In this document: piece after piece, positions 1 to 11,233 of the stretch
Position numbering within the stretch: position 1 is the first letter of the stretch
Layout: every line of letters starts with the position of its first letter
Assembly: GCA_030647355.1 (NCBI GenBank)
Contig: JAUSIS010000006.1
Coordinates: 169,506 to 233,505, forward strand
Origin: a bacterium
GTDB taxonomy: Bacteria; Patescibacteriota; UBA1384; VFKW01
DNA: 64,000 nucleotides
Direction: 5' to 3'
Position numbers and translations under genes: made by a program
The notes under the pieces: model-generated
What the model saw: the letters and a program-made list of their open reading frames with translations, nothing else
Database searches by the model: none
What the model was told of the DNA's origin: nothing

Positions 1-457
1 GGATTTAGTAGTAATTGGTTTTGGGTTAATAATTGGTGGGTTAGCTGGCAAATATGTATTTGAAATTATTCTCGGGCACGCTTACTATAAAAAAAATAAA
101 TTGTCCTATAGCGCCACCGACTGGTTTCTTATATTAGTGAGTTTATTAATCAGCTTTATTCTTTTTATTATTATCCCTTTAATGGGTAAAGAGTTAGCGG
201 GAACACAGTATCCAAGTATCGTATATCTACCTTATTTTCCTATTGTTACAGGAATGGTTTATGGCTTTCTAGCTAAAAGTGTTTCGAGAAAAGAAGCGGA
301 TAATTATAAGGCGAGAAATTACATAATTTGGCTTACGCCCGTTTTTGTTAATTTTAATATTTGCTGGAAGAAACGCGAAAGCGGGTGGTTGATATATCTT
401 TCGAGTTGGTTAATAGTACTTGTAGGTTTTTTTCTTTTTTATATCAGTACAATATAG
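1..457 (+). CDS. multi-pass membrane protein, 5'-partial (frame is open back to the window start; the tabulated TTG at 101 is probably internal)
   Basis: Frame 2 has no stop from nt 2 to 457. The translation is strongly hydrophobic with several predicted TM helices. A hairpin plus T-run follows at 521-549. Confidence 0.4.
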   Translation, partial: DLVVIGFGLIIGGLAGKYVFEIILGHAYYKKNKLSYSATDWFLILVSLLISFILFIIIPLMGKELAGTQYPSIVYLPYFPIVTGMVYGFLAKSVSRKEADNYKARNYIIWLTPVFVNFNICWKKRESGWLIYLSSWLIVLVGFFLFYISTI

Positions 458-520
458 ACAAAATATCTGTCCACTCAAGTAGGTGTTCGAAACAAAGTGC
501 ATTCAGCCTACACGGCAAAA

Positions 521-549
521 TAACAGGTTTAGAGACCTGTTATTTTGTT
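521..549 (+). terminator. rho-independent terminator for the membrane-protein gene
   Basis: aacaggt-ttagag-acctgtt hairpin followed by attttgtt. Confidence 0.45.
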
Positions 550-589
550 AGTTGGGACCGGTTATTCCTCTAAAAAACGAATCAATAAA

Positions 590-619
590 TAGAAAAAAGT
601 CAGAGAAAACTCTGACTTA
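590..619 (-). terminator. rho-independent terminator for the radical SAM operon (minus strand)
   Basis: aagtcagag-aaaa-ctctgactt hairpin. On the minus strand it is followed by a T-run (the plus-strand A-run at 593-598). Confidence 0.45.
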
Positions 620-641: not shown

Positions 642-1553
642 CTACATGTAGTAGTTGAACATGTACGCATACTGTAGAAAATGTCCTTTGTGGTTGACGA
701 CAGGATGATTCCAGCATTTCCCTAGGCCATCTCTCAGAATATTACCGACGTTGATGCAGTCGTCTTGAGAGTAACCTTGAGAAATGACATCACCCCGTGA
801 ATCGATAAGGAAACAAGAGTGATGGTTGCCCAATTCGGAATAATCCTGAATAGTTATGAATGGCTCATCGCCCGACATCCTTTTGAGCTCTTGAAGCTGC
901 TTCAGATAAGTCTTCCTTTCCTCATCCGAAAGAAGAAGCTCCGTGTTCCCGTAAGCTTTACCTTGGGGCGCAATCAGGATATAGAACAGCCTGTCTACTC
1001 CCAAAGCTTTTGCTAGCTGGTAGATATAGTCTATCTTATCCAGATTGTCCTTTCTAACCAGGTAATTGATCCGCAATGGAACACCTGCGTCTCGGTATAG
1101 CTTCATTGACTCCACAGCCCTCCTATAGGCACCCTCGCCACGGGACCTGTCGTGAACTTCTTCGTCCCCATCCAAGGAAATCAACAGCAACGTTTTGGTT
1201 TCAAGGATTGTTTGGGCGATCTTTTGATTCCATATAGAGCCATTAGAAGTGACAAGGGTTTCGATGCCTCTGTCGGAAGCGTAGTTTAATATGTCACAGA
1301 TATCTGGACGAAGAAACGGCTCCCCCCCGGTGAAATCGATTCTCACCAGATTAGCCTCAGCCAAAACATCGACGATCGACTTGATGTCGCCCAAGGATAA
1401 TTCAGTAGAATCTTGCTCTCCGCTAAGACAGAAATCGCAATGGTAGTTACACCGTCGCGTAACCTGCCAGCAGAGTGATAACGGATTCGATAGCGTGACT
1501 TTCAGATTAGCCAATCGCTGCTCATGTCCTTCTTTGTACTCGACGATTCTCAT
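642..1553 (-). CDS. radical SAM enzyme with a C-terminal Cys-rich SPASM/twitch-like extension
   Basis: N-terminal CNYHCDFC (CxxxCxxC), a GGEP-like motif (FTGGEPFL), and C-terminal HHSCF...DDCINVG...KCWNH cysteines. A 9-bp gap separates it from the upstream methyltransferase gene. Confidence 0.7.
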   Translation of the reverse strand: MRIVEYKEGHEQRLANLKVTLSNPLSLCWQVTRRCNYHCDFCLSGEQDSTELSLGDIKSIVDVLAEANLVRIDFTGGEPFLRPDICDILNYASDRGIETLVTSNGSIWNQKIAQTILETKTLLLISLDGDEEVHDRSRGEGAYRRAVESMKLYRDAGVPLRINYLVRKDNLDKIDYIYQLAKALGVDRLFYILIAPQGKAYGNTELLLSDEERKTYLKQLQELKRMSGDEPFITIQDYSELGNHHSCFLIDSRGDVISQGYSQDDCINVGNILRDGLGKCWNHPVVNHKGHFLQYAYMFNYYM

Positions 1554-1562
1554 CTCTTATCC

Positions 1563-2270
1563 CTACCCTTTCTGATGCTGCAAAACCGAAGCTGTCATTT
1601 CCAAGACTGACACATTGTGCTGGATGTCTAGCGAAGGCAACTTCACGTTCCACTTGCCTGGAAAAGCGTTGTAGAATACCCCTTTCCTCGGCAATCTGAT
1701 AACAGTACCGACCACTGTCCTCGAAAAGAAGCCTAGGTCTGCATATGTACTCCTCATCCCCTCTGTGAATTCATTGATACCAAGCAGTTCACAAAACTCA
1801 TCGTTGCCGGCGTTTTCGATTGCAAGTATCATCCCGTCTGCTCGTAGGATGTCACCGAGCTTTCGAAAAACAATGTCGAACGAATCTCTCATAGACGTCA
1901 GACTCCACCCAGCGAAGATAAGGTCAACACTGCTGGGTAGTATGATCAAGTCTCTGGCATCTGTGAGCATGAATTCCACATTGTTGGCACCGAGATTCTT
2001 GTCGCGATTGATTTGCATCAAGCTTGTGCTTCTTTCTACGACGTAGAGCTTTGAGCACTCTCTCGATAAGAAAGATGTGAATTTCCCACTTCCAGCGCCG
2101 ACTTCAAGAATCGTTTTGCCCTTGAAATCGTACTGGCTGGATAAATACCCATCAATTATACCGAAAGCGTCCTGGCACCTACTGAATTCCTCGTAGGCAA
2201 CGCCCTGATTATAGTCAAATCGCCACAGGTCCTTGTTCATCTTAGTACCACCTTGTGATTGGTTTATCAA
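1563..2270 (-). CDS. class I SAM-dependent methyltransferase
   Basis: LEVGAGSGKFT glycine-rich motif I. AAGGTGG RBS 7 nt upstream of the ATG at 2270; an alternative start at 2240 is possible. Confidence 0.65.
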   Translation of the reverse strand: MINQSQGGTKMNKDLWRFDYNQGVAYEEFSRCQDAFGIIDGYLSSQYDFKGKTILEVGAGSGKFTSFLSRECSKLYVVERSTSLMQINRDKNLGANNVEFMLTDARDLIILPSSVDLIFAGWSLTSMRDSFDIVFRKLGDILRADGMILAIENAGNDEFCELLGINEFTEGMRSTYADLGFFSRTVVGTVIRLPRKGVFYNAFPGKWNVKLPSLDIQHNVSVLEMTASVLQHQKG

Positions 2271-2540
2271 TGTACCTCTATGTAAAAAGGGGTCAACCTT
2301 TTTAGATTAGCTGAATATTATCATGCATTAGACCAAAAAACAAGCCTTTGCCCGTATATTAAAAGAAATACCAGATAGTATTATTTGCTAGCGGGCCAAA
2401 GGAAGACTACTTGATTTGTTTCTAAATTTATGGTATTATCATGGCAACTAAACGGAGGGTCGCCCTGCGATCTTTTTGTTTGTAGGTTCCTTTACAACAG
2501 ATAGAATGTATCTCACACTAGAAAAGAGGAGGTGGCAACG

Positions 2541-3257
2541 GTGCAGTATGACGATAATGTCCTTGCAATAAGAGCCGCTGTAGCGAGATTTGAAGTTGAA
2601 CAAGGCGTTGATGTCAATGTCTTGTTTACGCAATTACTCCTACAGCATATCACCGACGGGTGCTCGTTGGTTGATATCGGCACTGGAAATGGTTTTGTTT
2701 TATCGCAAGTCTTGCAGCAAAGTGATAAACAGTTTCAACTATTCGGAGTAGATAACTCTCAGAGTATGGCATCTATTGCTCGGAAGAATCTTGTAGGAAA
2801 TGCTACTATCGTCGAAGCTGACGCTAGTGAGCTACCGTTTGATAACTGTAGCTTTGATATCGTATCTGCCAGAAATGTAACACAGATCGATGTTGTCGAG
2901 ATCTACCGTATATTGAAAGAAGGGGGGGTATTTGTCTTTCGTGAATATGGCTGCGGTAAGGGTATGCTGGAGATTGCCGATCTCTTTCGTGGCAGGATCA
3001 TTCGGCAGAGAGATCCTGATTATTATGTAGAAAGATTGCTAGACGCTGGTTTCCATATTGTGAAATTTGACCAATATGAGATCAAGCGTAAATACCGATC
3101 TGCACAAGAACTGGTTTCTATCGTCAAGAGCTACCCATTCGTTGTGGGTTTTTCCAGCCAGGACGAGAAGCTCATCTTAGAGAAGTTCGCCCAAAACGCT
3201 ACGATCACATCTGACCCGTTCATTCTGGTCACTACCAAACCGAAAGGATGTGCGTGA
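2541..3257 (+). CDS. class I SAM-dependent methyltransferase (Methyltransf_11/25-like)
   Basis: VDIGTGNGF motif I. AGGAGG RBS at 2526-2531 favours the GTG at 2541 over the tabulated 2532 start. The stop overlaps the next gene. Confidence 0.6.
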   Translation: MQYDDNVLAIRAAVARFEVEQGVDVNVLFTQLLLQHITDGCSLVDIGTGNGFVLSQVLQQSDKQFQLFGVDNSQSMASIARKNLVGNATIVEADASELPFDNCSFDIVSARNVTQIDVVEIYRILKEGGVFVFREYGCGKGMLEIADLFRGRIIRQRDPDYYVERLLDAGFHIVKFDQYEIKRKYRSAQELVSIVKSYPFVVGFSSQDEKLILEKFAQNATITSDPFILVTTKPKGCA

Positions 3258-3735
3258 AATGAGGAAAGTTGAATTGCTGTTCGATCTCATCAGGTCACCC
3301 TACGATATGGCACACATCGTCCAGATTGCCAAGTCGATCGACTGCATCGTCTATACTTCCGGCAGAAACTCGCTTTCTTTTGATATCCCCAAGGTGATAA
3401 CCAAGGTAAGATCTTGGAACATCAAGGGTGATTTCAAGGCGATTCATTATGAAACGTTTGAAGAAGCGATCCATGATCTGAGGGCAGAAGGTAAATACCT
3501 GGTGGGAACATCAGGTGAAGTCGACAAGCTTTTCTACGACATAGTTCTGCCGGATGGTAAGGATATAGTCGTAGTATTCGGCAACGAAACCTCCGGTCTG
3601 ACTGAAGCGAAGCAACAGATGTTGGACGATATGGTTAAGTTGCCAATGGACAAGTCCAAGGTTGATTTCCTGACCCTACCGGTGGCTGTCTCAGCCATCG
3701 CTTATGAGCTGTATCGACAGTACCACTGTCCGTAG
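3250..3735 (+). CDS. SPOUT-family RNA 2'-O-methyltransferase, TrmL-like
   Basis: C-terminal VVVFGNETSGL ... KLPM ... LTLPVAVSAIAYELYRQ matches the TrmL/SpoU motifs (FGxExxGL, IPM, SLNxSxAxxIxxYE). Protein is ~160 aa. Overlaps the upstream gene by 8 nt. Confidence 0.55.
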   Translation: MREMRKVELLFDLIRSPYDMAHIVQIAKSIDCIVYTSGRNSLSFDIPKVITKVRSWNIKGDFKAIHYETFEEAIHDLRAEGKYLVGTSGEVDKLFYDIVLPDGKDIVVVFGNETSGLTEAKQQMLDDMVKLPMDKSKVDFLTLPVAVSAIAYELYRQYHCP

Positions 3736-3757
3736 AGGAAGAAAGGTGGCGAGCATT

Positions 3758-4831
3758 ATGCTCAAGGATAAGATAGTTTATGTCGTCACCACGGGCGCAA
3801 CTAAGGCGAAAGGTGTTGGCATACTGCTCAGCATGCTAAAGTCAGAGGGTGCACAGTGCATCGTAATGCCAACCGACGCCAGCTATTCGATGCTTGATCT
3901 CGATTCAATCCGGGGCGAATGGGTCAAGTTCAATGGTAATGAATTCGGCGCCCGTCAAGACGAAATACCAGAAGAAGACCTAGTTGTTGTTGCGCCGTGC
4001 ACCTTCAATACGCTTTCCAAGATTGCGACGGGAATAGCTGATAACTATCCATTATCAGTGATCCATGCGGCGATCGGTAGCGGCAAGCCAGTGATTTTGG
4101 CCCTGGCTATGAATTACTGGTATTTCCAGCATCCTATAACTCCTGTAAACATCAACCGCGTAAACGCTTTTGGCAGGGTAAGGGTAATATGGCCTGAGTC
4201 GATCTATTCCGACGATGGTGTCCTCGAGAAAGTGACGATGGCGCCGTGGGAAAAGATTGTTGACACGATCTGCCATACCTACTGCAAGACACGATACAGC
4301 GAGACAAGAAAAGAACAAGAAACATCTGAGATTATCGATGATCACTTTCCAGAGTTCCATAAAACTGGCTCGAAGATGCAGCAAGACCATTTCACGAATG
4401 GTTCCGCTGGATTCATTGCCAAGAGAATTAAGGAAGGTGTACTTGTCACGTCTTCAGGGTCTTGTGTCGGAAATCTGTCAAGATCGGATCTCACGATTAT
4501 TCAGAACTGGTCCAATCAGGTTATAACCTGGTCAGGTGAGGCAAAGCCGTCGTCCGAGACGCCTTTGATATTGGAGATATTCGACAAATTCCCTGATGTC
4601 AAAGTAATCATACACGGACACTGTAGAAGCATCACTTACAGTCCTCTTATGAATAAGTATCACAGCAGTGAGTATCTCAAATACGGCGAATGGAAGGAGT
4701 TATACAAGATCCAGCCCGTTCTTCAGAAGTACAACGGGGGCATCATGAAATTGCATGGCGAGCTGATCCTTGCCAGGGATTTTGATGAAGCCATGGAGAG
4801 GTATCTGGATATGTATCGCCTAACCTGTTAA
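3758..4831 (+). CDS. two-domain fusion: HFCD/CoaC-like flavoprotein (N-terminal) plus class II aldolase/adducin-like domain (C-terminal)
   Basis: N-terminal APCTFNTLSKIATGIADN and ALAMNYWYF correspond to the HFCD PASANTxxKxAxGxxD and PAMNxxMW motifs. C-terminal PSSETPLILEIF...VIIHGHC corresponds to the class II aldolase PSSE...HTH pattern. GGTGG RBS sits before the ATG at 3758. Confidence 0.6.
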   Translation: MLKDKIVYVVTTGATKAKGVGILLSMLKSEGAQCIVMPTDASYSMLDLDSIRGEWVKFNGNEFGARQDEIPEEDLVVVAPCTFNTLSKIATGIADNYPLSVIHAAIGSGKPVILALAMNYWYFQHPITPVNINRVNAFGRVRVIWPESIYSDDGVLEKVTMAPWEKIVDTICHTYCKTRYSETRKEQETSEIIDDHFPEFHKTGSKMQQDHFTNGSAGFIAKRIKEGVLVTSSGSCVGNLSRSDLTIIQNWSNQVITWSGEAKPSSETPLILEIFDKFPDVKVIIHGHCRSITYSPLMNKYHSSEYLKYGEWKELYKIQPVLQKYNGGIMKLHGELILARDFDEAMERYLDMYRLTC

Positions 4832-4838
4832 TCGCAGG

Positions 4839-4874
4839 ACCCTATCAAGATTTATTTCAAGATAGGGTTTTTTA
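4839..4874 (+). terminator. rho-independent terminator
   Basis: accctatc / gatagggt 8-bp stem followed by TTTTTT. Confidence 0.5.
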
Positions 4875-4969
4875 ACCCAAAAAATTTATCATTTTACAGT
4901 ACAACTGGCATAAATTTATTATTTTGGTTATAATAACACTATTAGCCACAAATTTATAAAAGGAAGAAA

Positions 4970-5407
4970 ATGATCAAGAAAAAAATTCTAGCCATAGTTT
5001 ATAGGATAAAAAATCATAATGAACAGTTTCTAGCTTTATTGGAAAATAGCAGCGAAATCGATCAATCGGTCGGATACTACGTAGTTACCGGTGGAGTAGA
5101 AGGAAATGAAGGGTTACTGGATGCAGTGAAAAGAGAAATTATGGAAGAGACCGGAATAGAGAATATTGTTAATATTTTAGATTTGAATAAAATTTATGAA
5201 TACAAGCATCCAGCAGAGGGCGATTATCTCTGCCAGGAGTCTTGTTTTGCCGTGGAGGTTGATGACGAGGTGAAACATTTGAGCGTAGAGCATACAGGAT
5301 ATAAATGGTTACCTAGAAAAGAATTTTCCGATACGATATTTTGGTATACAAATAAAGCAGATTTAGATGAGCTATTAAATAAATTCATTAAGCACATGTC
5401 AAGGTAA
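4970..5407 (+). CDS. NUDIX hydrolase
   Basis: Nudix box GGVEGNEGLLDAVKREIMEETGIE (Gx5Ex7REUxEExGU). AAGGAAG RBS. Confidence 0.65.
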   Translation: MIKKKILAIVYRIKNHNEQFLALLENSSEIDQSVGYYVVTGGVEGNEGLLDAVKREIMEETGIENIVNILDLNKIYEYKHPAEGDYLCQESCFAVEVDDEVKHLSVEHTGYKWLPRKEFSDTIFWYTNKADLDELLNKFIKHMSR

Positions 5408-5601
5408 TAATTTTATTATCTCATACTTAGGGAGATCGATCTAATAACGATATAGTTATATTGATTGTACATATCAATTCCCTCGATATCTCTATCGAAG
5501 GCACTCCTTATTCTCTCCCGGCCCTCACCTCAAATACCTAGGGAATACCTTGGATAGATTTGGGCATTAATTTAGCTGATTATTGATAATAAAATAATGT
5601 A

Positions 5602-5631
5602 ATAGGTTCGAACAAACTCCCCTATGCGCTA
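5602..5631 (+). other. tRNA-Glu 3'-end-like fragment (T-arm/acceptor/CCA); possible att-site remnant
   Basis: GGTTCGAACAAACTCCCCTATGCGCTACCA matches the 3' terminal 26 nt of the intact tRNA-Glu at 10974-11048, apart from a 4-nt insertion. It is in inverted orientation relative to that gene. Confidence 0.45.
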
Positions 5632-5667
5632 CCACATGGTTTTTGATTTGAACCCGCAACCAACCCG

Positions 5668-5728
5668 GTAGACTGAATGAATCTTATTTCGAACACCTTG
5701 TGGATTGGCTGAATCAGCTAATGCTTGC
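5668..5728 (+). repeat. 61-bp direct repeat, copy 1 (flanks the SWIM/Fic island)
   Basis: ggtagactgaatgaatcttatttcgaacaccttgtggattggctgaatcagctaatgcttg. About 87% identical to the copy at 7679-7739 in the same orientation. Confidence 0.6.
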
Positions 5729-5805
5729 GTATGATCAGACGTTGTGTTTCAATCTCAAGAATGTATCTGATTGCTTTTAAAGTAAAAAGGCTCTAAAATG
5801 CAAAT

Positions 5806-6639
5806 ATGTTTTCATATACTAGAATTATTTTAGATAATACTGAATTATCGATCTATCAACGAGGCCTGGAATATGTCAACAAAAAGAAAGTGAAGTTAAC
5901 CTCTATCATAAATAATGGCTGCCAAGCAACTGCGAGTGGTTCACGAAATTATGAGATTACTCTAGGTTTCTCCAGGGTTGGCTCACCAAAATATTCCTGC
6001 TCCTGCCCATATTTTAGTGAACACAAAAAAGTGGTTTGTAAACATATTATTGGCACCTCGCTTGCTTGGGATAGATCGCGGAGTGTCCCTGATCCAGATG
6101 AAGAAACTTTGGAAGTACTTTGCATTCCGGAACCGATATTTTCGCACAAGGATATTAATGAAGCGTATAATAATCCGCTAACAGCTAACCTTGATGTTAT
6201 TCGAATCGCCGCTGATGAAAGCGGCTGGTCTAGGCCTCATGCACATTTACCAATAAAGCCACAAGTTTGTAATCATACAACCCTTGAGTTGACCGATATT
6301 AACAAAGGTATTTCAGAACTTCGTGCCTGGGCTAGAAAATATAACTTTGACCCCTATTTTTGCGCTGGCGAAATAATGGCCGGATTCTGTGAGCTCATAA
6401 GGTTCACTAAGTTTAAATTTGATACTTTAAATTTAGATGATAAAATTAAGGCAACAGTATTACTTGCTAATTTTCATCATGAATTAATCATGGAAAAGAT
6501 TGATGACAGCGAAGGCCTGCACGAATTTTCAGAAACTCATCTTTATGATCTAGTTAGCGAGTTAACTAACAATCAGAAGTTGAATCAGACGCAAATAAAA
6601 GCGCTTGAATTAATTAAACATAAAATTGATGATTATTAG
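5806..6639 (+). CDS. SWIM-type zinc-finger domain protein (hypothetical)
   Basis: CSCPYF...CKHI fits the SWIM CxCxnCxH signature. The rest has no other recognisable domain. Confidence 0.5.
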   Translation: MFSYTRIILDNTELSIYQRGLEYVNKKKVKLTSIINNGCQATASGSRNYEITLGFSRVGSPKYSCSCPYFSEHKKVVCKHIIGTSLAWDRSRSVPDPDEETLEVLCIPEPIFSHKDINEAYNNPLTANLDVIRIAADESGWSRPHAHLPIKPQVCNHTTLELTDINKGISELRAWARKYNFDPYFCAGEIMAGFCELIRFTKFKFDTLNLDDKIKATVLLANFHHELIMEKIDDSEGLHEFSETHLYDLVSELTNNQKLNQTQIKALELIKHKIDDY

Positions 6640-6660
6640 ATATGTTTTAGGTTAAATAAT

Positions 6661-7548
6661 TCAGGTAATTTTATATTCTGCCCTGATTTTCCAGACGCCT
6701 CGCTCGCGAAAAGCAGGAATCGATTGCCTTAGAGCGGCATTAAAAACTGTCGGAGCTCTTAAATTATTTTTTCGTACATAATCAGATAGATTGATTATTT
6801 CCGATCCTTCGAAATATGTGATTCTTTTATTTAACGATTCGGTTAGAGCCAGAGCCATAACTTTTTCCATCAATTTTGAATTTTTATTAAACTGATAAGC
6901 CTTAAATGCTTCATAATAGTCAGCCTTTTCTTTATCTCTGATAATTATACGGGGGAAGCCAAGTTGTAAGAGTTGAAAATTGGTCAGAACTCGACCAATT
7001 CGGCCGTTGCCATCGCAAAAAGGATGAATTCTCTCAAATTCAAGATGAAATTTAGCGATTTTATCAATAAAATAAGCAATGTGATCACTGGAATAATCAA
7101 TCAAAACATTATCAATTAACTGCTCGACTTTTTCGGGTGCCGACGCAACATGGGTGCCTACTCTAACATACTCGCCGATCCTACGAAAACGTCCGGCTAT
7201 ATTATCATCAATTCCGCCCATCAGCATTTGATGAATAAGCAATATTAGTTCTTTTGAGATTTCATCAGTTTGTGCTTTATCCCTTGTATAGTCAACAACC
7301 CTAGCCAAATTCTTAGCTTCATATACTTCGCGAAGGGTAACATCTCGTGAAAGCTCTTGCTCGAGTAGGATTTTTTCTGTCTCTTTAAGAGTCAATGTTG
7401 AGTTTTCAATCGCGTTGGAGTTATAGACACTTTCCGGCACTTCGGCTTGATCAATAATCGTTAAGAGAGCGTCTTTTCCTTGTTTCAAGACATTATATCT
7501 TGTCTTCAATTCACTTAATTTTTCTTGATAAGGTTTTGATAATGACAT
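6661..7548 (-). CDS. Fic/Doc family protein (class II Fic, putative AMPylase) with N-terminal inhibitory motif
   Basis: Canonical HPFCDGNGRIGR Fic motif. N-terminal SNAIEN fits the (S/T)xxxE(G/N) autoinhibitory helix. GGGGG RBS before the ATG at 7548 (tabulated start is 7590). Confidence 0.75.
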   Translation of the reverse strand: MSLSKPYQEKLSELKTRYNVLKQGKDALLTIIDQAEVPESVYNSNAIENSTLTLKETEKILLEQELSRDVTLREVYEAKNLARVVDYTRDKAQTDEISKELILLIHQMLMGGIDDNIAGRFRRIGEYVRVGTHVASAPEKVEQLIDNVLIDYSSDHIAYFIDKIAKFHLEFERIHPFCDGNGRIGRVLTNFQLLQLGFPRIIIRDKEKADYYEAFKAYQFNKNSKLMEKVMALALTESLNKRITYFEGSEIINLSDYVRKNNLRAPTVFNAALRQSIPAFRERGVWKIRAEYKIT

Positions 7549-7678
7549 AGTTGCCCCCAATTTAATGCAATTTAATTGTATACCATTCACGTTATTTTGT
7601 CAATATAGAGTGAATATGCATGTATATTAACATATATTCACGCTATTTTACTCCGCTCAACTCATTCATAGATGATTG

Positions 7679-7739
7679 GTAGACTGAATGCATCTTATTT
7701 CAAACACCTTGCGGATTAGCTGAATCAGTTAACGGTTGT
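7679..7739 (+). repeat. 61-bp direct repeat, copy 2
   Basis: ggtagactgaatgcatcttatttcaaacaccttgcggattagctgaatcagttaacggttg. Confidence 0.6.
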
Positions 7740-7834
7740 TAGTAATTTCACTGACAACTGATAAATTCCATACGATGTAACCATAGTAAATAACGGCTCG
7801 CTGGTTTTGAATTAGAATAGGCCTTAATATTACT

Positions 7835-10534
7835 TTATTTAGTCAGCACTACACTTATCTGGCTCTGGCTGATATTGCCGGCCGCATCATAGGCCTTGGC
7901 GACAATAGTGTAGGTACCGGCCGAGATGCCCTTGCCTCTGGTATTCCAAGTGTAGGAGTAAGGGGAAGTTGTATCGGTGGCTTTAAGAGAGCCGTTGATG
8001 TAAAACTCGACCTTAGCAACACCGACATTATCGGTGGCATTAGCTGTAATATTGACCTTGGTACCCATTTTAATATTAGCGCCACTTAAGGGCAAAGTAA
8101 TGGAGACTGCGGGAGGAGTGGTATCTGGTGTTCCCCCACCACCGCCACTACCGATGGTATAGAAAGCCCAGCCTCTACCCAGACAATTACCACTGCCGGC
8201 AGCAAAAGGTACCGGGCATGTTGTGAGGGTACTGGTAATAAGCGATGCTCTGACCGCAAATGGATAAACTTTTGCCGAAGCAGATAAGGGTGATGTTAAA
8301 TGTAGTATAGTTGAGCTACTTGTTCCTGAAGCCAGCGATGTCAATGTTTCTTGATCGAAGCCAAAAGACCATCCAATACCCATACCTGAACCGTTCTCCC
8401 ACATCAGACTATAACTTTGGTTGGAACAGTAAGAGTTGCTCGCATTCGTGACCGTAACAGTGTAGGAAACTTCAGCTCCCGCATTAACCGCTGTCGACAT
8501 TGTCGGCGTGATATTAACAACCGGGGTTTGATTTATACAATCAGTCGGCGCTCCGCTCCATACCACATAGGCAGCAGTGGATGTTCCAGCAAGAGCGGTG
8601 TTTGCTTGATGAGAAGCTTTGGCGGTGAAAAAGTAAAAACCTTGTGGAGTACTGGCCGGAGAGGTGACGGAGAGCATGGCGGTGCCTGTTGCCCCCGGCG
8701 GTAAAGTTAAATTGGAAACATTAAATTGAGCCGATAAATTAGGATCTGCTGTGTAGCCGAGATCGTAGGTGGCAGGTTCACAGCCAAGCGTGTCGCTATT
8801 CTTAATACCTATGACATAGTACAGAGTTTTTCCTCCAGTAGTAGTCCCTTGATTACCGCCGGCAATTTGCACCTGGGGAGCAAAACGACCACATACTGCG
8901 GTTGGGTCAATCGTAATGTTAACCGTTGCCTCTTGGTCTGTTACCGAGGTAGTAGTGATTTTTACTCCTGATGATGAATCATTGAATATTTGATCGGGTT
9001 TAAGCGCCCATTGAGTCGGCGTTGCCACTGAAGCGCCGGCACGCAAAAGGTCGGTCATGCTGCCATAGGTGATATCCGGAGCAATCCTTATAAATATTCC
9101 TCCCGGATTAGCAAAAGAGTCAAAGCCATAAGTTTTGCGATACTCCAAATAAAAATATTTTTTCACTACATTCGTAGCCGGGTCTATCTCCTTCGGGATT
9201 CTAATCATCTGGATACCACTTGACGCGTATTCTTGCGGGGCAATTTTATAGGTTCCGCTTTGAGTCACTGTTTGATAATTGGTGGAGGTAATCCAGTCTC
9301 TGAAAGTTTTGTAATAATTGTTGTAGTGATAATAACCGCCGCCCATAATATCATACGGATCGCCATACTCACTCCATTTACAATTATCCCCTATGGGAAC
9401 GGGGTTACTGGCAGTATCGGCGCAAATGAAAGAATTGGCGTGATAAAAACCAAGGTTATGTCCCATCTCGTGAGCAATTGTAGGTGAGTTATAGTAGATG
9501 GGAGTGCTGCCAGATCCGGTATAAGTTGAGTACCAACTGCTTCCACGTACCCCACTCCCCAAGGAGCCCCGCGCACTAAAGAGACATTGGGTGGAGATGT
9601 TGCCAAAAACATACTGAACATTGGTGTAGGCGGCCGGATCAAAACCATCCCTCGCGGCCGCCATCTTGTCTCCGGCACTCCCCCAGATTCCCCACCAATT
9701 ATCCGAAAATGAACAATCGTCATTTCTGTATGATATAGTATACCAGCCGTAAATATCCAAATTCGGATCTTTGATTCCGCTCATAATAGTCTTGCCGAAA
9801 GAAGCTTCCTTCCAAAGATTGTTCACCGAATTTGGATTCAGATAATTAATCTGACGAATATAATCATTGGTAACGGTTTGTGTTTGATCATTTTGGAAAT
9901 TAATCAAGATTACCGCTATTTTGCGCATATCTGTAGGGGTAACGGTCGCTGCAACTTCTTGGGAGTCAACTGCGACAATGTCCTCGCTTCTGGCGACAAT
10001 AATATCCTGAATTTTTATTCCACTTAGTTTCACATTTCTGTTAGCCAACGATGTCGGAGCTTCACCGTCAATAAATATTTCCGGCGCTTCCGGTAGCTTT
10101 CCTAGATAGTAATGCGCTTTACCGACTTTTTCTTGGAAATCATCTTCTATAATAACTTGCAAATTACCTTCGCTCCGAAACCGCTCCTCAACGCTAGGCT
10201 TAATTTCAGCCGGCATCTGGTTGTAGAAATTCAACGGTAGCGCTGAGCTCATAAACTCGCCGGGATTTTCTTTTGCTATCATTGTAAATTTATTTTTGCG
10301 TGATTGGGCAATATCTTTAAGTTCTGCCATATCCTCGATTTTCTTACTTTTCTTATATTTAGAGGCAGCACTTAAAAGCCGGTCATTAAGGTTTTTTACC
10401 ACCACTCGTTCTTCCTGAGTTTTCAGGACATCTGCCTTAAAGAAAAGGTTATTCTTCATTAAAACAATAACTAATCCTGCAGCAGATAGAACTAAGACGA
10501 AAATTAGAATTGATAACAAAGTTCTTTTGGGCAT
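7835..10534 (-). CDS. secreted/membrane-anchored metzincin-type zinc metalloprotease with C-terminal Ig-like domain
   Basis: N-terminal TM/signal anchor. HEMGHNLGFYH matches the metzincin HExxHxxGxxH zinc site. A long Thr/Ser/Gly-rich beta-rich region and a C-terminal Ig-like module (VEFYINGSL...YTWN...GTYTI) follow. AAGGAGGG RBS before the ATG at 10534. Confidence 0.6.
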   Translation of the reverse strand: MPKRTLLSILIFVLVLSAAGLVIVLMKNNLFFKADVLKTQEERVVVKNLNDRLLSAASKYKKSKKIEDMAELKDIAQSRKNKFTMIAKENPGEFMSSALPLNFYNQMPAEIKPSVEERFRSEGNLQVIIEDDFQEKVGKAHYYLGKLPEAPEIFIDGEAPTSLANRNVKLSGIKIQDIIVARSEDIVAVDSQEVAATVTPTDMRKIAVILINFQNDQTQTVTNDYIRQINYLNPNSVNNLWKEASFGKTIMSGIKDPNLDIYGWYTISYRNDDCSFSDNWWGIWGSAGDKMAAARDGFDPAAYTNVQYVFGNISTQCLFSARGSLGSGVRGSSWYSTYTGSGSTPIYYNSPTIAHEMGHNLGFYHANSFICADTASNPVPIGDNCKWSEYGDPYDIMGGGYYHYNNYYKTFRDWITSTNYQTVTQSGTYKIAPQEYASSGIQMIRIPKEIDPATNVVKKYFYLEYRKTYGFDSFANPGGIFIRIAPDITYGSMTDLLRAGASVATPTQWALKPDQIFNDSSSGVKITTTSVTDQEATVNITIDPTAVCGRFAPQVQIAGGNQGTTTGGKTLYYVIGIKNSDTLGCEPATYDLGYTADPNLSAQFNVSNLTLPPGATGTAMLSVTSPASTPQGFYFFTAKASHQANTALAGTSTAAYVVWSGAPTDCINQTPVVNITPTMSTAVNAGAEVSYTVTVTNASNSYCSNQSYSLMWENGSGMGIGWSFGFDQETLTSLASGTSSSTILHLTSPLSASAKVYPFAVRASLITSTLTTCPVPFAAGSGNCLGRGWAFYTIGSGGGGGTPDTTPPAVSITLPLSGANIKMGTKVNITANATDNVGVAKVEFYINGSLKATDTTSPYSYTWNTRGKGISAGTYTIVAKAYDAAGNISQSQISVVLTK

Positions 10535-10584
10535 TTTCCCTCCTTTATTCATATTATCTCAACTATAATAATTATAAATAGCCA

Positions 10585-10986
10585 ATGTGGCGGTGTCAAG
10601 TGTACGTATGGAATCGAATTGTATGTGGGAAACTCACCCAAATGGTCCACTTTGTGGCCGTTTCCCGACCCCTTCCCGGATCCGATTCCAGACTCATATA
10701 TACCAAAATAGAGGAGAAAATAAGAGCACTTCAAATCGCTAAGAATGACGATTTACTTTTGAAATATAATCTTGAGGCGATCACCAAATTTATAAAAAAC
10801 AAGCTTGGTAATCTCACTCAAACTTACATAGATTCAACTCTGGAACAGAAGAGAATCTTGTTGTGTTCGATATACCCCTCAGGATTGCATTGGGGCGAAA
10901 ATGGCTATTCGAACACCCAAATTAGCAAGTTCTACAGGAGTATATTGGGGATACAGACTGATAGCATCCCTTTTGGTAGCGCATAG
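10585..10986 (+). pseudogene. truncated tyrosine-recombinase (integrase)-like N-terminal fragment abutting tRNA-Glu
   Basis: STLEQKRILLCSIYPSGLHWGE resembles the start of the tyrosine recombinase catalytic domain (LLLLLYTGLRxxE), with H in place of the first catalytic R. It is preceded by a SAM-like core-binding stretch. The ORF runs into the tRNA and lacks the rest of the catalytic domain. Confidence 0.35.
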
Positions 10987-11048
10987 GGGAGTCGAACCCC
11001 TCTTTTCAGATTGAAAATCTGACGTCCTAACCGATAGACGAATGCGCC
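10974..11048 (-). tRNA. tRNA-Glu (anticodon UUC), CCA encoded
   Basis: Manual cloverleaf on the minus strand: acceptor GGCGCAT/ATGCGCT (G1-U72), D-arm GTCT/GGAC, anticodon stem TCAGA/TCTGA with loop TTTTCAA (UUC), T-arm AGGGG-TTCGACT-CCCCT, discriminator A + CCA. Confidence 0.8.
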
Positions 11049-11098
11049 TTTATCTCGAGCGTAGTCGAGAGGGTATCATTCTAACGAAAATATTATAT
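11049..11098 (+). repeat. MITE-like ~48-bp repeat, copy A (contains the CTCGA-GCGNAG-TCGAG hairpin core)
   Basis: tttatctcgagcgtagtcgagagggtatcattctaacgaaaatattata. About 88% identical to the copy at 12402-12455. Begins immediately at the 5' end of tRNA-Glu. Confidence 0.55.
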
Positions 11099-11233
11099 CG
11101 TAAATATGACAAATAATCAAGCTAGCTCAGGGTAATTCGCATTACCCTTCCTTTACAAAATGACTAATCGGTACTATAATTATGCAACATTCAAACGCCG
11201 CAAATTTACATCTACGAAAGGGGAAAATTATCC

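Follow-up and report, generated by a model that had tools for sequence, protein, structure and literature searches.

Introduction

Serine integrases are the preferred tools for the insertion of large DNA, and they are thought to avoid tRNA genes. The described large serine recombinases (LSRs), among them phiC31, Bxb1, A118/LI, TnpX, and CcrAB, combine Resolvase, Recombinase, and zinc-ribbon domains and recombine at a short attachment (att) core. Here, we analysed a stretch of 64,000 nucleotides from a bacterium of the Patescibacteriota (GTDB lineage UBA1384; VFKW01), positions 169,506 to 233,505 of contig JAUSIS010000006.1 in assembly GCA_030647355.1; the whole stretch is referred to as the window. 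At 5667-10980, two defunct integrative elements, E1 and E2, are probably stacked in tandem at the 3' end of a tRNA-Glu(UUC) gene, with an LSR as their integrase. The remaining stub of the integrase gene led us to an LSR family that appears to target tRNA 3' ends, to carry its attP site within its own gene, and to use half-sites based on the tRNA T-loop.

This family shares the three-domain architecture and the short att core with the described LSRs. With LI integrase, it also shares a P' half-site motif that lies 5 bp further out than the corresponding motif of B' (PMC3783163). It differs from the known LSRs in its targets, which are the 3' ends of tRNA genes whereas the known examples hit protein-coding genes, and in that the motif shared by the half-sites is the tRNA T-loop itself. 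According to a 2020 survey, no serine integrase had previously been reported to use a t(m)RNA gene, and the survey listed 14 of 297 predicted cases (PMC7192596). In the serine integrases of rumA-targeting integrative and conjugative elements (Tn1549/CTn5 type, streptococcal and clostridial), the att site lies inside the gene 3' end, and, as in the family described here, the integrated and the excised form encode different C-termini (PMC4701971). The rumA-type elements, however, swap 3' ends with a protein gene, rumA, whereas the partner of the present family is a tRNA gene in antisense. Unlike the rumA type, the family spans at least 10 tRNA specificities, and its relic tails pile up in arrays.

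The archaeal integrase of the SSV1 type is a tyrosine recombinase whose integration partitions its own gene, and the pieces flank the element at a tRNA gene. As a comparison from general knowledge, the partitioned integrase gene with both pieces flanking the element is common to SSV1 and the present family. SSV1 differs in its tyrosine class, in a split that takes away much of the gene, and in an att core that is a long identity with the tRNA. The classical tRNA islands of tyrosine integrases share with the family the site at the tRNA 3' end, the restoration of the tRNA, tandem accretion, and decay to cargo. Unlike these islands, the family lacks a long, directly repeated tRNA end, employs another enzyme class, and has a piece of the integrase gene as its boundary.

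Results

A fragment of a serine recombinase gene runs into tRNA-Glu(UUC)

An intact tRNA-Glu(UUC) gene is located on the minus strand at 10974-11048, where ARAGORN and Rfam (tRNA model, 61.6 bits; cut-off 29) agree on it and where it also enters the junction table of the family. The open reading frame (ORF) at 10585-10986(+) ends with ...CCT TTT GGT AGC GCA TAG inside the antisense 3' end of this gene, so its final codons are the antisense of the tRNA CCA end. A preliminary description of this DNA had recognized both the intact tRNA and a truncated integrase ORF running into its 3' end, and its idea of an island remnant at this place stands. It had also called the ORF tyrosine-recombinase-like, an assignment that we replace. 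The ORF has no match in Pfam (E<=0.1), PHROGs (E<=0.1), or NCBIfam (E<=0.01), no Phage_integrase (PF00589) signal was obtained from any of these libraries, and every homolog of the ORF is a serine recombinase, complete or fragmentary.

The initial protein search with the window ORF returned five short relatives only. One of them, in locus L007, follows an interrupted ORF whose sequence is typical of the Recombinase and zinc-ribbon domains, and a query rebuilt from L007 retrieved 107 homologous proteins. Full-length members carry PF00239, PF07508, and PF13408 (112.7, 41.2, and 30.8 bits, respectively, in the 529-aa LSR of locus L083, which lies at a tRNA-Glu), and the family shows weak NCBIfam similarity to CcrB and XisF. 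The named members among the 107 are labelled Saccharimonadales or Patescibacteria. By BLASTP, the window ORF is 57% identical over 92 aa to residues 347-437 of the 441-residue protein P0049 (E=2e-29), and a multiple alignment places it at the extreme C-terminus of full-length LSRs. The homologous part comprises only about 94 codons (10709-10980), and the first ~40 codons are without homology. BLASTP, nhmmer, and the alignment concur on 10709-10980(+) as the relic of an LSR gene, consisting of its last ~94 codons, the end of which is the P arm of the attachment site. To judge from these homologs, the window integrase is an LSR, from a family common in Patescibacteria-type metagenome contigs.

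This stub is the only P-arm match in the window (nhmmer, E=2.3e-46), and 10708-10998 is the sole region of LSR similarity in its 64 kb. No Resolvase, Recombinase, or zinc-ribbon domain is left in the window, which makes its LSR copy a pseudogene stub. With no catalytic domain remaining there, the island is immobile and fixed in place.

Members of the family abut the 3' ends of tRNA genes

Scanning metagenomes with the C-terminal alignment yielded 80 loci, and a scan of IMG/VR added 1 more; the 75 loci with at least 100 nt past the match were taken as informative. At 70 of these 75, a tRNA gene on the opposite strand abuts or overlaps the 3' end of the recombinase gene with its own 3' end. The target tRNAs represent ten specificities (Leu, Glu, Phe, Arg, Ser, Ala, Gly, Pro, Met, and Lys), and the recombinases at the tRNA-linked loci are mostly full length. 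Four of the five exceptions (L081, L084, L086, and L044) have non-tRNA sequence past the junction, with the features of a tail, the name used here for the last ~35 codons of the recombinase gene.

The recombinase gene is unsplit and reads through the core into the tail in L001, L002, L081, and L044; the split arrangement is found in the window, L080, and L050. P0002, the protein of L001, shares 97% identity with the window ORF, and its sequence across the junction is ...IPFGS-LNALPIEHLLKWLDQLMLRF.... At the DNA level, window 10709-10980 and L001 261-532 are 96.7% identical over 272 nt without gaps, and the identity stops exactly at GGTAGC. Beyond this core, the window continues into tRNA-Glu and L001 into the tail and then other genes. 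On the aligned sequences, the difference is a natural polymorphism at the crossover (p.b versus p.q), and it marks an insertion exactly at the stub/tRNA junction. This polymorphism is the sole natural evidence for recombination between attP and attB. The arrangement of the window region was also found in an independent Logan assembly (L008, L009). The core GGTAG(C) is common to the window and L001, and the attL and attR sites of L080 share 8 nt, TTTGGTAG. In the window, the recombination core is the terminal CTACCA of tRNA-Glu (antisense TGGTAG, 10974-10979), and the acceptor and T-arm are the B' half-site.

The two kinds of half-site differ in spacing. The distance from GG to T(C/T)(G/A)AAC is 22 nt in 16 of 16 tails, including the q4 site of the window described below, against 17 nt in the target tRNAs. 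A corresponding shift is the established rule for LSRs, in which the motif of the zinc-ribbon domain is displaced 5 bp outward in attP relative to attB (PMC3783163). In L081, the unsplit P' arm mimics the target tRNA-Gly (TGGTGT GGGTGACGAGAC TTGTT TCGAAC against TGGTGC GGGTGACGGGAC TCTAAC).

Unsplit genes run on into the tail, and the window has a tail after GGTAG and a stub before the tRNA; attP would thus lie inside the recombinase gene. We propose that it is situated within the last ~100 nt of the element's own recombinase gene and would recombine with the tRNA gene at a short core, here GGTAG(C), the antisense of the tRNA terminal CTACC. After integration, one end of the element (P + B' = attR) would have the recombinase gene running into the tRNA in antisense, and the tail would stay behind at the far end (B + P' = attL). 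The body of the tRNA would be kept and its last bases restored from the element. In the P' arm, the distance of the T-loop-like motif TCGAAC from the core would exceed that of the real tRNA T-loop by 5 bp. Later elements would land beside the same tRNA and displace older ones outwards. We infer from sequence comparison in which order the events took place, that the site was reused, and how recombination proceeds chemically. The exchange of the C-terminal ~35 residues upon integration and excision could serve as a built-in state switch.

Recombinase tails delimit the relics in the window

Tail q1 (5667-5780, plus strand) forms the left end of E1. It starts at GGTAG and is intact, with 36 codons (RLNESYFEHLVDWLNQLMLAYDQT...); the translation directly after GGTAG at 5667 reads RLNESYFEHLVDWLNQLMLAY.... 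It is equal in length to the tail of the unsplit P0002 in L001 and 48% identical to it over 31 aa, and its distance from GGTAG to TCGAAC is of the attP type. Tail q2 (7678-7738, plus strand), the left end of E2, comprises the P' half-site from GGTAG, with the frame broken by a stop. The two tails constitute a 61-nt direct repeat (5667-5727 and 7678-7738, 89% identical), and the tail similarity of q2 was also detected by tblastn. Tail q3 (RLNALCFEHLLEWTDILSILY*; 447-511, minus strand) is 55% identical to the P0002 tail over 20 aa by tblastn and borders a low-GC block that leaves the window at its left edge. We then searched the window with a DNA profile built solely from 13 tails of non-window loci. 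Its three best matches were q3 (511-477, minus strand; E=1.4e-4), q1 (5667, plus strand; E=2.6e-4), and q2 (7676, plus strand; E=2.4e-3).

From left to right, the block contains a 32-nt spacer, q1, a SWIM gene, a Fic gene, q2, a protease gene, the LSR stub, and tRNA-Glu. Relic E1 (5667-7677) accordingly holds q1 with SWIM and Fic, and relic E2 (7678-10980) holds q2 with the protease and the LSR stub. Comparable tail arrays upstream of a recombinase relic and a tRNA are present in L064 (three tails, 3992-7575), L080, and L050. A 750-bp relic in L080 (6092-6846) consists of nothing but tail and stub, and L050 has a single tail upstream of the stub and tRNA-Leu. Stacking with no tRNA within the stretch examined was observed in L002 (three tails, 4037-10459) and L081 (a tail and an unsplit junction; 2653 and 10334). 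From these loci, the repeated use of one tRNA, with older elements shifted outwards, looks typical of the LSR family, and the arrays of L064, L002, L081, and L080 together look like a fossil record of one tRNA gene that was invaded repeatedly.

The GC content is 0.361 in E1, 0.436 in E2, 0.42 in the window, 0.451 in the flanking host segment, and 0.336 at 1-512. Composition had been suggested in the preliminary description as a check on the island, and the GC content speaks for a foreign origin of E1 but not of E2. A different partition of the block would make E2 the only element DNA, with SWIM and Fic as resident genes and q1 as the scar of a separate, almost wholly deleted element. The sequence left of q2 ends with TTGGTAG like a native tRNA flank, the relic of L080 shows that shrinkage to tail and stub can occur, and no P-arm remnant lies between q1 and q2, all of which would suit this partition. 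It has to contend with the GC content of E1, the lowest in the block, with the matches of both E1 genes to anti-phage defence candidate families typical of islands, and with the tails of other arrays, which delimit successive relics; we consider it rather improbable. The low GC, the position between two tails, and the defence-candidate matches favour an arrival of SWIM and Fic with an element.

The tails are short and their single E-values modest, as they would be if the similarities were due to chance or an assembly artefact and the region were ordinary native DNA. Against this, the protein homology, the DNA profile, and the position exactly at the core are three independent lines that agree, the passage from stub to tRNA is repeated in 70 loci, and the arrangement recurs in the Logan assembly. 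Chance or artefact is therefore extremely improbable.

An inverted copy of the tRNA 3' end lies outside the first tail

When the tRNA was compared with the window and the family loci on both strands, tRNA positions 57-75 proved identical to window 5616-5634(+) in all 19 nt (E=4e-5). Allowing a single 5-nt gap lengthens the match to 30 nt (5605-5634). The inverted 30-nt copy noted in the preliminary description is thus real, although it had been placed about 3 nt away, at 5602-5631. On the minus strand, the copy reads TGGTAG CGCATAGGGGAG TTTGT TCGAAC, which is the antisense tRNA end with 5 additional nt ahead of the T-loop motif, and it stops directly after TCGAAC, the expected edge of a half-site. 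Since the 5-nt insertion yields the spacing of an attP half-site, we read the copy as a relic junction and not as a duplicated att core. The spacing, the 19-nt match, and the comparable mimicry of tRNA-Gly by the P' arm of L081 make 5605-5634(-) a probable P' half-site, q4, and we somewhat favour the view that it is the fourth P' half-site of the window, left by a leftward-facing relic like q3. A whole decayed tRNA-Glu pseudogene at 5563-5634 was ruled out: the sequence upstream of the copy scores 12 against the 5' part of the tRNA, with a shuffle mean of 14, which is not significant, and only a 3' fragment is present.

A second tRNA-end copy attributable to an element end was found at none of the 70 tRNA-linked loci within an upstream flank of up to 10 kb, so the copy is not a normal product of integration. 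This bears on the explanation in which a tyrosine-integrase island duplicated the 3' end of its tRNA target, leaving the 30-nt copy as the far att site, which a later inversion, one of the two possibilities raised in the preliminary description, then turned round. The 3' ends of tRNAs are the classical target of tyrosine integrases, and a copy spanning T-loop to CCA does exist. Yet no library gave a Phage_integrase signal, the ORF is homologous to serine recombinases, and tails, not tRNA copies, mark the far ends of the elements. Moreover, the copy is inverted, carries its insertion at the attP half-site position, and lies outside the tail junction at 5667, and no flanking repeats able to drive an inversion were found. 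An insertion with attP spacing is better explained by a relic junction on the opposite strand than by a later inversion, and a tyrosine-integrase island is highly improbable.

The back-to-back q4 and q1 are separated by a spacer of 32 nt (5635-5666), which on direct reading is a candidate for the original B arm, i.e., the DNA downstream of the tRNA before invasion. The spacer has no P-arm similarity, and no further copies of the spacer or of the junction contexts were found in any family locus. It contains a T-loop-like TTTGAAC (5647-5653) at ~13-14 nt from both cores, roughly the attB-type distance; the motif could have arisen by chance, since L080 and L050 have none in their B arms. Flipped integration through a palindromic TA dinucleotide was considered as the origin of the inverted tails and rejected, as it would give directly abutting tails and not cores 32 nt apart.

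The order q4-spacer-q1 is the topology expected of two convergent tRNA genes that were each invaded. The copy could accordingly be the last remnant of a plus-strand tRNA-Glu convergent with the present one, ~32 nt off, that decayed after elements had parted the pair, its insertion being a coincidence. Two tail-to-tail tRNA genes fit the topology and would account for the missing tRNA on the left. However, 19 nt are preserved at 100% whereas the 5' 50 nt show no detectable similarity, so that the copy has an abrupt edge where gradual decay would have left none. It also stops directly behind TCGAAC, as a half-site would, and its insertion gives exactly the 22-nt attP spacing. We regard a decayed convergent tRNA as unlikely, though with an appreciable chance of being correct.

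Together with the low-GC block at 1-512, q3 looks like a second relic island of opposite facing. Two terminator-like sites, each a hairpin followed by a T-run, are located at 520-600(-) between a radical SAM gene and q3. The segment between the inverted tails q3 and q4 (642-4831) encodes the radical SAM protein, two SAM methyltransferases, a SpoU methylase, and a flavoprotein/class II aldolase fusion. If q3 and q4 bound a relic, this cluster would be its cargo, despite a host-like GC content of 0.45.

Cargo of the relics and of intact relatives

The cargo of E1 comprises a SWIM zinc-finger protein of 277 aa (5806-6639, plus strand; PF04434, 21.7 bits, cut-off 19.6; PADLOC PDC-S62, 9e-12) and a class II Fic protein (6661-7590, minus strand; PF02661, 75.9 bits; PADLOC PDC-S04, 1e-38, and SoFic, 7e-28). 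Class II Fic proteins have the core HPFx(D/E)GNGR and, N-terminal to it, the inhibitory motif (S/T)xxxE(G/N). In the translation, SNAIEN stands upstream of HPFCDGNGRIGR (HPFCDGNGR), which corresponds to the class II layout. Both genes had been named as cargo in the preliminary description, which saw a flavour of host interaction or conflict in Fic and the protease. Fic and SWIM resemble anti-phage defence candidates.

E2 carries a 905-aa protein (7835-10552, minus strand) with an N-terminal hydrophobic segment, predicted to be a membrane or signal segment, a HExxHxxGxxH zinc motif (HEMGHNLGFYH), and a C-terminal Big_7 Ig domain (Pfam, 79.9 bits). The motif is in line with the metzincin-like protease proposed earlier, but all matches to protease families fall under the curated cut-offs (Reprolysin_4, 17.2 against 22 bits; M6 TIGR03296, 26.6 against 110.8 bits). 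Matches in the PDB are confined to the Ig domain.

Outside the stack, a NUDIX gene matches PADLOC PDC-S07 (4e-6), and NUDIX, SWIM, and Fic (4970-7590) all match defence-candidate families. The low-GC tract (~0.36) spans ~4600-7750 and hence includes NUDIX beyond the q1 boundary. A Fic-like gene in L096 was discarded as element cargo, being located on the host side.

Among the intact relatives, L011 and L065 carry a TraG/TrwB-like ATPase, L011 also carries a Replic_Relax protein, and the cargo of some others differs. Such gene contents point to small elements of the integrative mobilizable or conjugative kind and not to phages. As the scan of IMG/VR yielded a single locus, the elements are not obviously phages. 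A small ORF (97-119 aa, no Pfam match) directly precedes every intact recombinase gene examined, at a few bases from its start or overlapping it (L011, 9654-10004; L013, 9704-9997; L065, 8500-8826; L083, 8450-8809, 119 aa). This conserved ORF is a candidate recombination directionality factor. The contig that holds the tRNA-Leu relic of L050 also bears a second, more distant LSR (2052-3572; 38% identical to P0077), with its position ~250 nt upstream of a tRNA-Arg(tct) gene. Targeting of tRNA genes may thus extend more widely than the sampled family.

Discussion

The stub, the tails, and the junctions with tRNA genes lead us to interpret 5667-10980 as two stacked relics of LSR elements. Several observations weigh against this interpretation. 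The GC content favours a foreign origin for E1 only and not for E2. No empty site was shown, and the host is without close relatives in the databases searched: in a protein search, the flanking amidohydrolase had no relative besides itself at more than 39% identity, a scan of genome contigs with it gave one distant match (34% identity), and exact-protein look-ups of both flanks returned the same strain only. Other elements of the LSR family yielded no homologs of the cargo genes. The tail profile supports q4 weakly (E=0.54), because its inner 12 nt resemble the tRNA and not the tail consensus. The tRNA expected for q3 and q4 is absent from the 9.4 kb left of the window, as is LSR similarity. 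Finally, a profile of ten P arms revealed no P-arm similarity just left of q1, q2, or q3. Simple tandem integration predicts junctions between a recombinase end and a tail, and none was found, so an additional deletion step must be assumed. Such a later deletion was possibly driven by the recombinase itself, between an internal attP-like junction and a pseudo-site.

We found no description of a tRNA-targeting LSR family of this kind in the searchable literature. With slightly less than even confidence, we propose that a large and mostly patescibacterial LSR family has gone undescribed, in which the tRNA T-loop would anchor the zinc-ribbon domain, attP would lie within the 3' end of the recombinase gene itself, at least 10 tRNA specificities would be used, and successive invasions would leave arrays of tail scars.

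The window itself is modest, a dead and immobile island with a defence-like pair of Fic and SWIM genes and a large protease. For annotation, islands of this kind cannot be delimited by a repeated tRNA end; what marks them is a stretch of ~60-100 nt from the integrase gene. If true, a natural family that docks at tRNA 3' ends through a T-loop half-site would have landing sites in every genome and a simple logic of re-targeting.

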